IMG/VR virus record: IMGVR_UViG_3300044632_001218
Reading direction: 5' to 3' (one strand)
DNA length: 64,000 nucleotides
Origin: a virus
The translations under genes and the position numbers were made by a program. Numbering within the stretch: the stretch's first letter is position 1; every line of letters starts with the position of its first letter. The notes beneath the pieces are model-generated. The model was not told the DNA's origin, ran no database searches, and saw only the letters and a list, made by a program, of their open reading frames with translations. Positions 1-37,075 of the stretch are shown here, one piece after another.

Positions 1-2
1 GA

Positions 3-3000
3 CCTCAAGGTGCTCAAGGTGCTACAGGAGCTACAGGAGCACAAGGAGCACAAGGTTCTATAGGACCTCAAGGATCACAAGGAACTACAGGAGCACAAGG
101 TGCTCAAGGTACTGCAGGAGCACAGGGTGCTACAGGATCTACAGGTGCTCAAGGATCTGCAGGAGCACAGGGTGCTACAGGATCTACAGGTGCTCAAGGA
201 TCTGCAGGTGCTCAAGGTGCTACAGGAGCTACAGGAGCACAAGGAGCACAAGGTTCTATAGGACCTCAAGGATCACAAGGAACTACAGGAGCACAAGGTG
301 CACAAGGAGCTGCAGGTGCACAGGGAGCTACAGGATCTACAGGAGCTCAAGGTGCTACAGGATCTACAGGAGCTCAAGGTGCTACAGGATCTACAGGTGC
401 TCAAGGATCTGCAGGAGCACAGGGTGCTACAGGATCTACAGGTGCTCAAGGATCTGCAGGAGCACAGGGTGCTACAGGATCTACAGGTGCTCAAGGATCT
501 GCAGGTGCTCAAGGTGCTGCAGGAGCACAAGGAACTGCAGGTGCTCAAGGAGCTAGAGGACCTCAAGGACCACAAGGAGCACAAGGTTCTGCAGGTGCAC
601 AAGGAGCTGCAGGTGCACAGGGAGCTACAGGATCTACAGGAGCTCAAGGTGCTACAGGATCTACAGGAGCTCAAGGTGCTACAGGATCTACAGGAGCACA
701 GGGTGCTCAAGGAACTGCAGGAGCACAAGGTGCAAGTGATGGTGGATTTACTGTTTTCAATAATACTACTCAGAACTCTAATTGGTATGTTGGCATTCTT
801 TCTGTAACATCTGGAATTGCCAAAACTGCTCATGTTTCTTCAACAAAACTTCAATTCAATCCTTCTACTGGGGCACTTGGAATTGGTACTATTATTGATA
901 TCGTTCCTTATGATACTTTAAATTCAGGAACACTTTCTTGGGAAGGTTCTGCTGGACAACTCTTCAGTATTACAAATAATCTAACTACTGGATCTATCTT
1001 CTCAGTTAATGATGTTTCTGGTATTCCAAGTATTGATGTAGATGCTGACGGAACAATTGAACTTGGACCTTATGGTGGTAATATTGGAGTTGGAACCACA
1101 GGGCCAACACAAAAATTACATGTTCAAGGTAATGTAAGAATTACTGGTGGAATTTATGATTCAAGCAATAGTGTAGGTTCTGCAAGTTCAGTATTAAGTT
1201 CTACTGGAGTAGGATTGAGGTGGGTTACGCCAAACTCAGGACCTCAAGGTGCACAGGGTGCTGCAGGAGCACAAGGTGCTACAGGATCTACAGGTGCACA
1301 GGGAGCTACAGGATCTACAGGTGCACAAGGTGCTACAGGATCTACAGGCGCACAGGGATCTACAGGATCTACAGGAGCACAAGGATCTGCAGGAGCACAA
1401 GGATCTGCAGGAGCACAGGGATCTACAGGATCTACAGGAGCACAGGGTGCTGCAGGTGCACAGGGAGCCACAGGATCTACAGGTGCTCAAGGTGCTGCAG
1501 GTGCTCAAGGTGCTACAGGATCTACAGGTGCTCAAGGTGCTGCAGGAGCACAAGGAACTGCAGGTGCTCAAGGAGCTAGAGGACCTCAAGGACCTCAAGG
1601 AGCACAGGGTGCTACAGGATCTACAGGAGCACAGGGTGCTGCAGGTGCACAAGGTGCTACAGGATCTACAGGTGCACAAGGAGCTGCAGGAGCACAAGGT
1701 GCTACAGGATCTACAGGATCTACAGGAGCACAGGGTGCTGCAGGTGCACAGGGAGCCACAGGATCTACAGGTGCTCAAGGTACTGCAGGTGCTCAAGGTG
1801 CTACAGGATCTACAGGTGCTCAAGGTGCTACAGGATCTACAGGAGCACAGGGTGCTGCAGGTGCACAGGGAGCTACAGGATCTACAGGTGCTCAAGGAAC
1901 TGCAGGTGCACAGGGTGCTGCAGGAGCACAAGGATCTGCAGGTGCACAAGGTGCTGCAGGTGCTCAAGGTGCAAGAGGTGGTTCTGATTGGACACCAAAC
2001 CTAACAAACATCACTCAGTCCACAACAGATTCTTCAACATTCACCAAAACTGGTGGAGCTGCAAGTACTTGGGATTCTCAGGTATATTCATCTCAAGGTT
2101 ATGTGAGGGGAGCATTTGCATCTGCAAGAATATCCTCAACAACTGGATTTGCAATGTTTGGTCTCAATACAGACCCAACAACAAATGCAAGTTATGCTTC
2201 AATTGATTATGCTTTCTATTTTGATAGTGGAACAGTAAACATTTATGAGAGTAATGTTCCAATAGTAGGTTCTTATGGAACTTATACCACAGGTGATACT
2301 GCTTATGTCATTTATGATGGTGCAAATGTAAGGTACTATTTAAATGGAACTCTCTTGAGAACTGTTGCAAGAGCAATTGGAAGTGCTCTTTATCTTGATA
2401 GTTCCATTTATACATCCGGCCTTGCATTCAACCAACTCTCCTTTGGTCCTATGGGCGAGATTGGACCTCAAGGTGCACAAGGAGCTACAGGATCTACAGG
2501 AGCACAGGGTGCTGCAGGAGCACAAGGAACTGCAGGTGCACAGGGAGCTACAGGATCTACAGGAGCTCAAGGTGCTACAGGATCTACAGGAGCTCAAGGT
2601 GCTACAGGATCTACAGGTGCTCAAGGTGCTACAGGATCTACAGGTGCACAAGGTGCTGCAGGATCTACAGGTGCACAAGGTGCTGCAGGTGCACAGGGAG
2701 CTACAGGATCTACAGGTGCTCAAGGTACTGCAGGTGCTCAAGGTACTGCAGGTGCACAAGGTGCTACAGGATCTACAGGTGCACAAGGAACTGCAGGTGC
2801 TCAAGGAACTGCAGGTGCACAAGGTGCTACAGGATCTACAGGTGCACAAGGAACTGCAGGTGCTCAAGGAACTGCAGGTGCACAAGGAACTGTAGGAGCA
2901 CAAGGAACTGCAGGTGCACAAGGAGCTAGAGGACCTCAAGGACCACAAGGAGCACAGGGTGCTGCAGGTGCTCAAGGAACTGCAGGAGCACAAGGAACTG

Positions 3001-3225
3001 CAGGAGCACAAGGAACTGCAGGTGCACAAGGAGCTAGAGGACCTCAAGGACCACAAGGAGCACAGGGTGCTGCAGGTGCTCAAGGAACTGCAGGTGCACA
3101 AGGAACTGCAGGTGCACAAGGAGCTAGAGGACCTCAAGGTGCACAAGGATCTGCAGGAGCACAAGGTTCTGCAGGTGCTCAAGGTGCTCAAGGAACTCCA
3201 GGTGCACAGGGAGCTGCAGGACCAT
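3..3225 (+). repeat. Three tracts of 9-nt degenerate tandem repeats (collagen triplets), approx. 3-735, 1236-1980, 2460-3225
   Basis: Repeating ggtgcacaa/ggagctaca/ggatctaca units visible directly. Confidence 0.95.
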
Positions 3226-3680
3226 CAACTTTAATTAATGCTACAAACACAACAACAAATGCTACATTTTATCCAGTATTTGTTGCAGCAGCAGGTTCAA
3301 ACCAAACTGCAAGTGTTAGAACTACAGCAACTGCATTTACATTTAATGCAAGTACAGGTGACTTAACTGTTGGTGGAACTATAACTGCAAACTCTGATGA
3401 AAGATTAAAAACTAACATTCATACTATTGAAAATGCACTTGAAAAAGTTCTTAATCTTAGAGGTGTAGAATATGATCGTATTGATACTAAGGTTCATACT
3501 ATTGGTTTGATTGCACAAGAGTTAGAAACAGTATATCCAGAACTTGTTATAGAAAGTAATGGATACAAATCAGTTGCTTATGGAAACCTTGTTGGATTAC
3601 TCATAGAAGCAATTAAAGAGCAACAAGTTCAAATTGAAAATTTAAGCAACATTATAAATAATTCCAAATTGTTAGGATAA
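3..3680 (+). CDS. Collagen-like (Gly-X-Y) tail fibre with C-terminal Peptidase_S74-type intramolecular chaperone; 5'-truncated
   Basis: The frame is open from nt 3 through 1215 (the track's start at 1215 is an internal TTG) to TAA at 3680. Three [12 protein letters not shown] tracts separated by globular segments. C-terminal [27 protein letters not shown]...GLIAQELE motif. Confidence 0.9.
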
Positions 3681-11412: not shown

Positions 11413-11495
11413 ACTTATGGGCATCAAAGGTCCAAACTTTGAATAAGTCCCACCCCCTCCATGCCTCTTAACAATGCACAAACAGGAGGGACTAT
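11413..11495 (+). ncRNA. Candidate structured RNA between the tRNA-like element and tRNA-Arg
   Basis: Stems ACTTAT/ATAAGT, TCAAAG/CTTTGA, CCCTCC/GGAGGG; alternative AGTCCC/GGGACT. Confidence 0.45.
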
Positions 11496-11568
11496 GCCCC
11501 GTTAGCTCAGGAGACAGAGCAATTCTCTTCTAAAGAATCGGTCGTGGGTGCAAATCCTACACGGGGTG
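11496..11568 (+). tRNA. trnR: tRNA-Arg(TCT)
   Basis: Cloverleaf; anticodon loop CTTCTAA; atypical T-loop TGCAAAT; no encoded CCA. Confidence 0.9.
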
Positions 11569-11579
11569 TTTGTTTTGAA

Positions 11580-18283: not shown

Positions 18284-19273
18284 ATGACTACATATAAAAA
18301 AATTGAAATCCCTTGTGGAGTTCCTGATCTAAATTGGTTTTCTGATTTAGAAGTTCCTACATTTAACACAGCAAAATTTGTAGGATTTGAAATTAGAGAC
18401 TGTGATAGTATCATTTACACTAATAATCTAGGTCAAGTTGTAAATGTTGTCAGAGCAACTGGAACTGATTATATAAATGCAGATAAAATTAAAAATAATA
18501 TTGAAGTAAAAGGTATTCAAATTGATAGCCTTCCCCCTGTTATTTTGGAAGATGGAACTTCCATTGATGGGTTTACTCGTGGATATGCTCTTAAATCTCT
18601 TGGGCAAAATAAGTGGGTATATACTGTTGTTAAACTTGAAGATGGGTATGAACTTGAAGATCTAAAAGATGAATTGGGTCTTGGTTGCAATGACCATCCT
18701 CCATCAAAAGCTGCAGATATTAAAGATTTTAAAGTTCGTCTTGCAAATTGGATTGATAGGTATCAGAAAAGAAATTCTGATAAACTTCCTACACTTGATC
18801 AATGTTTAGATTGGTGGTCTTCCATTCGACATTCTATTAAAGAAGAAAAAGTAAAGTCTGCTTGTGAAGATGTTCTCAACAAGATTAGAACCAAATCAAG
18901 CATGGTTCCTCTGAAAAAAGAGGAAGCAGAAAGTAAAGCAAGAAAAATGCTTGAATGTGATAATCAAACAGAAGTAATTGCAATTAATAATAAAAGAAGC
19001 ACTTACATTGAAAGAGCATTTATTCAAGCACTTAATGCTATTTCAAACAATAAAAATGTTAAGGTAGTTGGATTTTTGAGTGATGTTCCTGCCGAAGAGG
19101 CAAAAAAAGCAAGGCAACAATTAAAAAAAGATGTTCAAAAATTGAATAAAATGTTTAGAAATTATGCACAAAAGTATAATGACGATGTAATTAATGATTT
19201 GATTACTATAGAAGGATTTATTCCTCAAATTCTTGATGAAGAAGATACAACTGAATTAGTGAGAATTTCCTAA
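18284..19273 (+). CDS. ParB/Sulfiredoxin-like N-terminal domain protein
   Basis: LPPVILEDGTSIDGFTRGYALKSLG...NDHPP resembles the ParB PPxV..IDGxxR core. Confidence 0.55.
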   Translation: MTTYKKIEIPCGVPDLNWFSDLEVPTFNTAKFVGFEIRDCDSIIYTNNLGQVVNVVRATGTDYINADKIKNNIEVKGIQIDSLPPVILEDGTSIDGFTRGYALKSLGQNKWVYTVVKLEDGYELEDLKDELGLGCNDHPPSKAADIKDFKVRLANWIDRYQKRNSDKLPTLDQCLDWWSSIRHSIKEEKVKSACEDVLNKIRTKSSMVPLKKEEAESKARKMLECDNQTEVIAINNKRSTYIERAFIQALNAISNNKNVKVVGFLSDVPAEEAKKARQQLKKDVQKLNKMFRNYAQKYNDDVINDLITIEGFIPQILDEEDTTELVRIS

Positions 19274-34543: not shown

Positions 34544-34774
34544 ATGAAGGAGAACAAAGTGTTTCAACTTGAGTTATGCCAAGAGGATGCTAATCGTATT
34601 CTCAAAGGTGTATGGGAGTTGCGGATACATGAGTATAACAAAGCAAGGCAAGAAGATCCCAATGGTGAACAGGAAAGTGCCTGGATTGAGTATGATTATG
34701 TGACAGCACTGTGGGGAGAGTTAGATGAGAAGTTTTCCACAGTTTATGATAGTTTTCCACAGAAAGTGTGTTGA
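34544..34774 (+). CDS. Hypothetical protein
   Basis: ORF track; 3' end carries two TTTTCCACA boxes. Confidence 0.6.
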   Translation: MKENKVFQLELCQEDANRILKGVWELRIHEYNKARQEDPNGEQESAWIEYDYVTALWGELDEKFSTVYDSFPQKVC

Positions 34775-35115
34775 TTTGTGGATAAATTAAATGTGTTAAT
34801 AAATGTAATAGTGTGATGTGTATTGTTTGTGTTAATTAGTGTATGTACCTGTAAATGTGTCTAGTTGTTGTGATCTTGGCCTCCAGTGTATCACAAACTC
34901 TCTGAAAAGTCAAGCACCCCCAGTCACTCCTAGGACTGGCACATGACCCCTTGACAGTATAGTTTTCCACAGGTCTTAAGTGTGAATCAGTGAGAACACA
35001 GTGCACCACTGGAGTTATAACAAATGACAGTCAATTTGCCTGTGGAAAACTATAGTCAAACCTGTGGAAAACCCTGTGGAAAACTATACAAATTGTGGAA
35101 AAATAGTTTTCCACA
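34733..35115. repeat. Cluster of 9 DnaA-box-type 9-mers (8 x TTTTCCACA, 1 x TTATCCACA, both strands)
   Basis: Boxes at 34733, 34753, 34777, 34963, 35041, 35063, 35075, 35094, 35107. Confidence 0.85.
34885..34942 (-). promoter_or_regulatory. Inverted early promoter cassette P20 (antisense to the early array)
   Basis: Minus strand: GTGCCAGTCCTAGGAGTGACTG, 7 nt, TTGACT-17-TACACT; same 30-nt spacing. Confidence 0.75.
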
Positions 35116-35162
35116 GGTTATAATATAGTGTGAGAATGTGTGAGAATGGCAGTGTATGTAAC

Positions 35163-35191
35163 TTGACAGTATTTGTGATGTGTGTTATAGT
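35163..35191 (+). promoter_or_regulatory. Sigma70-type promoter in the non-coding region
   Basis: TTGACA-17-TATAGT with extended TG. Confidence 0.7.
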
Positions 35192-35434
35192 GAATTGGCA
35201 GTTATTTGTGCCCTTGAGGGTTGGTGGGGGGGTGTAATGCGAAAAACCACAACTACCCTAACCTACAGAGGTGACAAACAGCGAGAGCGATATCAAGATG
35301 AATAAAAAAAATTTTCCCCAGGTAAAAAATTTCCTAGACTTTTTTGAGGAATTAGAGTATATTGTGCTTTGCCTGTGTGCCACTCTAAGTATTATTGGAA
35401 CCCATTATATAAAAAAATTTTCCCAGTATAAAAA

Positions 35435-35596
35435 ATGACATATAGGTTGATTGCAAGAGACAGGGTGTTTTGTGAGGGCACCTTATCAGAATGCCAGAAA
35501 ACACTCACAGGTATATCCCAGATGATTAGTGCAGGTGTTTCTACTGATTTTCAGGTAGAAGAGTTTCTTATAGTAATTGACAATGAAAAAGAATAA
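35435..35596 (+). CDS. Hypothetical protein (53 aa)
   Basis: Manual ORF. Confidence 0.55.
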   Translation: MTYRLIARDRVFCEGTLSECQKTLTGISQMISAGVSTDFQVEEFLIVIDNEKE

Positions 35597-36261: not shown

Positions 36262-36319
36262 TAATAAATAATGCAGTATCATTGAGTTGATACGTATCAT
36301 CATAACATTTGATAATTTT

Positions 36320-37075
36320 ATGGCAAAAGGATTTACTGTAAAAGCAAAAGCACCTTCAGAAGAACAACAACCCCTGTTTAATAGAGAAGAGTGTTTAGAA
36401 AAGATTAGGGGTAAGACTATTGTATTCTGTCTTCCAGGTCGGGGCGTATCATATATTTTCCTGAAGAACTTCGTGCAACTGTGCTTTGATTTAGTACAGG
36501 CAGGAGCATCTATTCAGATTTCACAAGATTATTCATCAATGGTAAACTTTGCACGTTGTAAAGTTCTTGGTGCTAATGTTCTTGCAGGTCCTGATCAATT
36601 ACCTTGGCAGGGTAAACTTCAATACGACTACCAGTTGTGGATTGATTCTGATATTGTTTTCAACACTGATGCATTCTGGGCATTGGTTCAGATGGACAAG
36701 GATATTGCTGCAGGTTGGTATGCCACAGAGGATGGCAGAACTACCTCAGTTGCACATTGGTTAGAAGAAGAAGACTTTGCCAAGAATGGTGGCGTCATGA
36801 ACCATGAGATGGTAGACACCATTTCCAACAGAAAGAAACCATTCACTGTGGATTACACAGGCTTTGGTTGGGTTCTGGTTAAGCATGGTGTATTTGAGCA
36901 CCCAGACATGAAGTACCCTTGGTTTGCCCCTCAGATGCAGGTCTTTGAGTCTGGCGATGTTCAGGATATGTGTGGTGAGGATGTTTCCTTCTGCTTAGAG
37001 GCAAAGAAGGCAGGTTTTGAAATCTGGTGCAATCCACAGATTCGTGTAGGTCATGAAAAAACAAGAATCATTTAG
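36320..37075 (+). CDS. GT-A-fold glycosyltransferase-like protein
   Basis: LWIDSD (DxD), GFGWVLVK..VFE, GEDVSFC...VGHEK; late promoter ATAAATA at 36264. Confidence 0.7.
   Translation: MAKGFTVKAKAPSEEQQPLFNREECLEKIRGKTIVFCLPGRGVSYIFLKNFVQLCFDLVQAGASIQISQDYSSMVNFARCKVLGANVLAGPDQLPWQGKLQYDYQLWIDSDIVFNTDAFWALVQMDKDIAAGWYATEDGRTTSVAHWLEEEDFAKNGGVMNHEMVDTISNRKKPFTVDYTGFGWVLVKHGVFEHPDMKYPWFAPQMQVFESGDVQDMCGEDVSFCLEAKKAGFEIWCNPQIRVGHEKTRII

Follow-up and report, generated by a model that had tools for sequence, protein, structure and literature searches.

How does a T4-like phage of cyanobacteria come to carry a tight cluster of host-type DnaA boxes, and what might this cluster do there? Phages of the T4 type are held to start replication by R-loops and then by recombination, without host initiators. 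Cyanomyoviruses are among the most abundant viruses of the ocean, and to our knowledge no origin has been mapped in any of them. The cluster lies in the IMG/VR virus record IMGVR_UViG_3300044632_001218, of which a stretch of 64,000 nucleotides (hereafter “the window”) was analysed; some searches were extended to the whole contig of 107,814 nt. An earlier note on this DNA proposed three identities for the cluster: an oriC mimic, a DnaA sponge, or a set of phage iterons.

The source is a T4-like cyanomyovirus carrying cobS, 2OG-Fe(II) oxygenases, a tRNA cluster, and gp6 and gp7-like baseplate genes. The record covers about half a genome, and it holds no psbA through which it could be linked with host genomes. 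Two other features of the window deserve mention. An Rfam match to the abiF RNA (RF03085, 11455-11491, forward strand, 50.6 bits, gathering score 37) lies directly upstream of the phage tRNA-Arg(TCT) at 11495-11569. At 1-3680 (forward strand), a long open frame with about 50% GC in a phage of 36% GC is built of GGN-NNN-NNN repeats (collagen-like Gly-X-Y), and its product is probably a structural fibre protein.

The box array

The DnaA box consensus is TTWTNCACA and its cyanobacterial form is TTTTCCACA, as used in the Ori-Finder and DoriC papers. The sites of the window are given below with reference to alignment A1, which comprises the window and six relatives (seven phages) at a mean column identity of 66%, and to the backward promoter P_L, described in the section on the hub.

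34733-34741, forward strand: DnaA box TTTTCCACA, an extra left box in a window-specific insertion (A1 columns 23-70, gapped in the relatives)
34753-34785: left convergent pair, TTTTCCACA at 34753 (forward) and TTATCCACA at 34777 (reverse), 24 nt start to start
34963-34971, forward strand: DnaA box whose sequence, flanks included (AGTTTTCCACAGG), is the same in all seven aligned phages; lies at roughly -85 to -93 relative to the P_L start
35041-35102, reverse strand: right array of four DnaA boxes in the same orientation, starting at 35041, 35063, 35075 and 35094
35107-35115, forward strand: DnaA box forming a palindrome with box 35094 across a 4-nt gap; window-specific insertion
35096-35124: weak promoter-like site TGGAAA-17-TATAAT, overlapped by box 35107
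35312-35320, forward strand: one-mismatch box TTTTCCCCA with a GG flank, within the small ORF 35298-35438

The nine boxes reported earlier, eight TTTTCCACA and one TTATCCACA, are all recovered by exact search, each with its position and strand correct. When the whole contig is searched, the exact form TTTTCCACA occurs in eight copies, all of them in 34733-35115. For an exact 9-mer, 1.9 copies are expected per 64 kb, and eight were reached in none of 100 shuffles. The relaxed consensus TTWTNCACA is found 14 times in the whole window against 15.4 expected, and since it is not enriched overall, the signal is a local cluster of the perfect form. The 11-mer GTTTTCCACAG was counted seven times in the contig, in agreement with the claim that seven boxes have a common longer flank, and several copies are identical across 14-17 nt (TATAGTTTTCCACAGG).

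Spacing within the right array is 22, 12 and 19 nt in the window and 21-22, 11 and 21-22 nt in the relatives, and equivalents of the left pair are found at 23-24 nt in the relatives, in Syn9 and in P-SSM7. One relative (L053:374-450, A1 columns 444-466) differs from the others by an extra 22-nt unit, a box plus 13 nt, equal to two helical turns; as read from the alignment, the right array expands through duplication of this 22-nt unit. The 7C variant, to which the one-mismatch box TTTTCCCCA belongs, is the commonest in cyanobacterial clusters too. This box is included in the first copy (35305-35330) of a 26-nt direct repeat, AAAAAAATTTTCCC(C)AG(G)TA..AAAAAT, whose second copy, 85% identical, lies at 35411-35436, the two flanking ORF 35298-35438.

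The stretch between the boxes had been described as AT-rich and gene-free, which stands in part. It is AT-rich at 34786-34850, but the remaining gap is of ordinary composition and holds promoters. Boxes 34733 and 34753 fall inside the called 3' end of ORF 34544-34774, although the equivalent pair is intergenic in relatives. On the other side, the gap probably ends at 35297, since the 46-codon ORF 35298-35438 has homologues in seven related loci.

Boxes of the cyanobacterial type

As a cellular reference, one genome per prokaryote species was scanned for three closely spaced direct boxes, which yielded 120 loci, 42 of them from named cyanobacteria. On the viral side, a 14-mer scan of viral contigs returned 117 loci, many with four to eight exact boxes in 500 nt; the phage flank logo was computed after removal of the copies that had seeded the search. 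The two sets have nearly the same flanks. G stands at -1 in 65% of cases in phage clusters and 64% in the 42 cyanobacterial loci, and G or A at +1 in 67 and 28% against 71 and 24%, with C and T nearly excluded; at +2, G reaches 57% in phages and 41% in cyanobacteria. In one cyanobacterial MAG, the phage 14-mer TAGTTTTCCACAGG occurs four times, twice within a box cluster that also holds a box followed by four CTA trios, the hallmark of a true origin.

The tolerated variants agree as well. Among 19 one-mismatch sites of phage clusters, positions 4, 6, 8 and 9 are never changed, and the substitutions 7C, 3A, 1G/A and 5T are common to the phage and cyanobacterial clusters (19 and 28 sites), whereas mismatches outside clusters are evenly spread over positions. 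In both sets, neighbours of the same orientation are most often 11-12 or 20-22 nt apart. Because flank, variants and phasing match those of cellular clusters, the extended motif is the ordinary context of a cyanobacterial DnaA box; the earlier assignment to the cyanobacterial type is thus borne out in flank profile, variant spectrum and helical phasing by the 42 cyanobacterial genome clusters. These likenesses make host DnaA the best candidate binder, and it very probably binds the array.

Similar clusters were seen in other viruses. Multi-box TTTTCCACA-like clusters occur in MZ089777.1 (Microvirus mar31, eight places), in MG945484.1, in Microbacterium and Arthrobacter phages, and in two IMG/VR contigs, L099 (GC 57%, six direct boxes) and L062. 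Their carriers are gokushovirus-type microviruses, actinobacteriophages and high-GC viral contigs, and phage DnaA-box arrays may therefore extend beyond cyanophages.

The promoter hub

The gap around the boxes holds a second set of features:

34786-34850: TG/AT-rich block, 77% AT, a local stability minimum at the 96th percentile of instability in the window
34868-34896: inverted repeat TTGTGAT-N15-ATCACAA, spanning the P_L -10 element and start site; invariant columns in A1
34885-34913, reverse strand: predicted backward promoter P_L of the extended -10 (TG) type, TTGACT-17-TACACT; consensus match, conserved in relatives
34990-35003: non-box block GTGAGAACACAGTG, invariant, between convergent boxes
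35163-35191, forward strand: predicted strong forward promoter P_R of the extended -10 (TG) type, TTGACA-17-TATAGT; 11/12, conserved in relatives
35198-35297, forward strand: leader downstream of P_R, with conserved blocks GGGGTAATGCGAAAAA and CCCTAACCTACAGAGGTGACAAA

P_L scores 9/12 plus the TG in the window, and 11/12 for the consensus of the relatives (TTGACA-17-TACAAT). It opposes every neighbouring gene, and as these all run rightward, it is left without a gene to express. Its predicted transcript is G-poor with zero predicted structure, and it would enter the AT-rich block, which extends from +30 to +90 downstream. The layout of T4 oriF and oriG is a promoter with an A+T-rich downstream element (PMC3016281). 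In form, P_L (34913-34885) and the 77% AT block match this layout, a likeness given by consensus matches only and by an instability that is moderate. The inverted repeat at 34868-34896, which is also kept in the box-less phage S-SCSM2R, looks like an operator for some dimeric factor.

Downstream of P_R the DNA is GC-rich, and a conserved leader of about 100 nt is followed by small genes. A structured RNA in this leader was considered and dropped: folding gave a z of -0.7 against shuffles, none of eight consensus pairs covaries, and Rfam has no match in the gap, neither at gathering thresholds nor at E<=1. The cores of P_L and P_R are free of boxes, the only overlap being that of the window-specific box 35107 with the weak promoter-like site. 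The left pair is located about 95-145 nt downstream of P_L, and the phased right array 83-157 nt upstream of P_R.

Conservation and distribution

Megablast of the region against named phages gave no match. Of the loci examined, 49 have at least two exact boxes in 500 nt together with homologues of the window's neighbouring proteins (four of the 49 are named isolates). All have a single orientation and lie a few kb upstream of the baseplate genes gp25 and gp6. At the syntenic site, seven boxes are found in DSL-LC03, four in P-SSM7, three each in S-PM2, Syn1 and S-MbCM6, and two in S-CAM1, while Syn9 has a box pair plus a near-box. No cluster was found anywhere in the genomes of P-SSM2, S-SSM7, P-SSM4, P-HM1, P-HM2 and P-RSM4. 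In S-PM2 (NC_006820.1 19177-19333), the three boxes at 19231-19264 lie under an annotated tRNA-Asn and tRNA-Leu; several tRNA and CDS annotations overlap in this interval, and some may be spurious.

For an unbiased estimate, the best relatives were collected through the neighbouring gene 36287-37075, giving 35 loci in which 2.5 kb or more of DNA is available upstream. The array is present in three of the 35, which are the three closest (86-91% protein identity), and 30 have no exact box at all. The relatives S-SCSM2R and L272 keep the P_L region with no box. The search for conservation in related phages, which the earlier note had suggested, is thus answered in two ways: arrays recur at the syntenic site in cyanomyoviruses, but they are absent from most of the nearest relatives. 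Since only 3/35 of these have it, the array is an accessory, dispensable module. This status weighs against an indispensable origin, and is compatible with both initiation and titration.

Where the array is present, it is conserved. In the seven-phage alignment, boxes and flanks are invariant against the 66% mean. In the distant isolates S-PM2, Syn1, S-CAM1, S-MbCM6, Syn9 and DSL-LC03, the boxes persist while the remaining hub sequence is unrecognisable. The layout recurs all the same: two or three packed boxes lead into an AT-rich stretch of 40-70 nt and a semi-conserved block, and in Syn9, S-MbCM6 and S-CAM1, three of five isolates inspected, a near-consensus sigma-70 promoter directed toward the baseplate genes comes next. 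A link with host genus was also considered and dropped: Synechococcus phages seem to carry arrays more often, but the positives came from a similarity search, and the Prochlorococcus phage P-SSM7 has an array. In the full-text literature, no paper on DnaA boxes in cyanomyoviruses was found; the main comparative-genomics paper confined its search to sigma-70, late, Pho and NtcA sites (PMC3037559).

A proposed docking site for host DnaA

The explanation that we favour, if only tentatively, is that the array is a DnaA docking site in a phage promoter hub, where it would modulate either transcription from the hub or initiation primed by a transcript. The module would then be an accessory input, as opposed to an oriC-type origin unwound by DnaA. 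Shortly after DNA entry, host DnaA would occupy the high-affinity sites. The phased right array would then nucleate a short DnaA oligomer that modulates P_R, and the left pair would block or anchor the gene-less P_L transcript on its way into the AT-rich block. If this transcript primes DNA synthesis (cf. T4 oriF and oriG), both the place and the time of this start would depend on DnaA occupancy. In this way, the module would couple early transcription or transcript-primed initiation to the status of host DnaA.

Several findings count against such a docking hub. P_L matches the consensus at only 9/12 positions in the window, the AT-rich block reaches only the 96th percentile, and since the P_L RNA is G-poor, stable R-loops are not favoured. 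Array and hub occur together in only three of the 35 nearest relatives, and S-SCSM2R and L272 have hubs that are box-less. The variant spectrum, in addition, comes from only 19 phage sites.

A possible decoy for host DnaA

Among the other explanations, the next in rank, though unlikely, is that the array serves as a decoy or remodeller. It would soak up host DnaA, as datA and the Bacillus clusters do, or reset its nucleotide state through head-to-head pairs, in the manner of DARS, so that host initiation and DnaA-regulated genes are shut off or reprogrammed. The density of sites speaks for this: eight exact boxes are packed within 383 nt of the window. Five small cyanobacterial genomes (1.6-2.3 Mb) have 15-31 exact boxes each, a count that does not exceed a reversed-pattern control, with at most three at any single site. 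Given these numbers, a single phage copy brings in roughly half as many perfect sites as a host genome contains, and the number grows with phage replication. The dnaN-side origins of Prochlorococcus-like genomes hold degenerate boxes only, which also suits a decoy, as does the patchy distribution, fitting for an optional weapon.

The arrangement of the boxes points the same way. Tightly packed inverted pairs, their boxes 4 nt apart, characterise phage clusters (23 cases), and the divergent form, that of the palindrome 35094/35107, is found in none of 151 cyanobacterial genomes. A head-to-tail filament could not be extended by inverted pairs, and these resemble DARS boxes I and II (PMC6868365). 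On the other hand, most cultured relatives have two to four boxes, too few for titration; a sponge needs no fixed place among conserved promoters; and the benefit to a lytic phage is unclear.

Some box arrangements in cellular genomes are worth recording here. We know of no cyanobacterial equivalents of datA or DARS. In one genome of 60% GC and 2.2 Mb (L256, G064:C4), nine perfect TTATCCACA, not TTTTCCACA, lie upstream of dnaN in two mirror-image arrays with spacings of 11, 21 and 54 nt. Two Prochlorococcus-like genomes of 30% GC and 1.65 Mb share two exact boxes in convergent orientation at a distance of 44 nt (loci L247 and L248, G131:C1:1423956-1424008 and G120:C1:1354585-1354637). The pair lies between DUF1818 and EVE-domain genes, far from dnaN, and could serve for titration or belong to a promoter under DnaA control. 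The host exact-box pairs found away from dnaN adjoin unrelated genes.

An oriC-type origin as an alternative

It is improbable that the locus is an oriC-like origin, at which host DnaA would melt the adjacent AT-rich block and recruit the helicase for a theta-type first round. Boxes, AT-rich block and promoters are the classic ingredients of an origin, and the helical phasing of the boxes is that of oriC arrays. According to a passage in a review (PMC2984593), a single theta origin is predicted for Syn9, and this phage has the syntenic box pair. The basal unwinding system, however, consists of a box, a spacer of 0-16 nt and at least three NAN trios, preferably 3'-GAT-5' (PMC8287927), and here the phage locus departs from it. 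In five host-like genomes (1.6-2.3 Mb, GC 29-60%, thrC-dnaN arrangement), the dnaN-side origins all show a box, a spacer and (CTA)3-5, four by score and the fifth by eye. Their DnaA-trio scores are 12-20, whereas the best score in the window is 6, equal to background. Among the phage clusters, one of 49 passes the trio score against three of 49 in the mirror control, and neither (CTA)3 nor (TAG)3 occurs anywhere in the contig.

The orientation of the boxes is a second obstacle. On the gene strand, the box beside the AT-rich block has the sequence TGTGGA(A/T)AA, in the window as in five isolates; it thus faces away from the block, whereas a box of the unwinding system points toward it. The block itself reaches only the 96th percentile of instability. 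Over the 107.8 kb of the contig, the cumulative GC skew rises monotonically with no turn, a weakly informative result in a phage with all its genes in one direction. With no DnaA-trios, a reversed box orientation and a skew without a turn, “oriC mimic” in its strict sense is not supported, and the absence of the array from most relatives argues in the same direction.

Phage iterons as an alternative

Highly improbable is the idea that a phage-encoded protein, instead of DnaA, binds repeats of 11-16 nt as an initiator or repressor. It draws on the identity of several copies over 14-17 nt, on the palindromic pairs, which would suit dimeric regulators, and on the many adjacent small ORFs without known function. 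The earlier note had taken the shared flank CTGTGGAAAAC as a pointer to such an initiator, but the same flank is normal in cellular boxes: the extra positions are those of cellular DnaA-box clusters, and across distant phages only the 9-mer plus a G...G flank is kept. The search for a binder also came back empty. By profile search, DnaA domain IV (PF08299) is absent from the contig, and the ten flanking small ORFs have no DNA-binding domain in Pfam or PHROGs. The mixed orientation and the uneven spacing of 12-22 nt, with no initiator or DNA-binding domain found nearby, are not those of an iteron origin, be it of a plasmid or of T4 oriE (PMC3016281).

Finally, a recent local duplication leaving functionless repeats is scarcely credible: the extra 22-nt unit in L053 and the window-specific insertions with boxes 34733 and 35107 are what it would produce, but the boxes are kept syntenically across Kyanoviridae genera while their surroundings diverge, and the variant spectrum is non-random.

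Significance

Taken further, the docking reading would mean that in one lineage of T4-like lytic phages the host initiator has become part of the phage's own start-up, with DnaA either licensing a transcript-primed origin or gating early transcription and replication on the replication or energy state of the host. This larger proposal is doubtful, but it would be the first host-initiator-dependent step known for a T4-type phage, and would supply a mechanism to which the dependence of cyanophage replication on light and the cell cycle could be tied. Were the array a decoy, it would be a new phage route to disabling the replication control of the host. The array offers a concrete, mutable handle on the start and timing of replication and early transcription, and as S-PM2, Syn9 and Syn1 carry the module, it is testable with existing host-phage pairs.

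Comparison with known systems

Known systems share features with the phage locus, and each differs from it in its own way. With the cyanobacterial oriC, the array has in common the 9-mer TTTTCCACA (and its variant TTATCCACA), the flank preferences, the tolerated variants and the 11- and 21-nt phasing. It differs in having no DnaA-trios, no dnaN or dnaA neighbour, and boxes in the opposite orientation to the AT-rich block. Phage clusters also have many tightly packed inverted pairs, and the phage array holds more perfect boxes than any single place in the five small cyanobacterial genomes.

The extrachromosomal replicons P1 oriR, pSC101 and F also carry host DnaA boxes. They add iterons for their own Rep proteins and replicate as plasmids, whereas the lytic T4-like phage shows neither Rep nor iterons.

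The likeness to T4 oriF and oriG lies in the T4-like phage itself, in P_L, predicted to fire into a gene-less AT-rich block, and in the site within a gene-free gap. The T4 origins are MotA-dependent and have no DnaA boxes, whereas a predicted sigma-70-type promoter is flanked here by sites for a host initiator. T4 oriE has 12-nt direct repeats of undefined role beside an early promoter (PMC3016281). The window resembles it in that repeats are clustered close to a promoter of the early type in a T4-type phage, and in that relatives keep the cluster at the syntenic site. The repeats of the window, however, match a known host-protein site and are of mixed orientation and uneven spacing, and no repE-like gene was found.

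datA, DARS1 and DARS2 are non-origin DnaA-box clusters that inactivate or reactivate DnaA, and in the DARS of E. coli the inverted boxes I and II, with a 5-bp gap, promote ADP release (PMC6868365). The phage array is likewise a non-origin cluster of high-affinity-type boxes, and its inverted neighbours have a 4-nt gap against the 5 bp of the DARS core. A DARS-like triad is seen in S-PM2: a box, 4 nt, an inverted box, 3 nt and a direct box. In the window, the nearest direct neighbour of the palindrome 35094/35107 is 19 nt off, and unlike datA and DARS, the whole array sits on a lytic phage.
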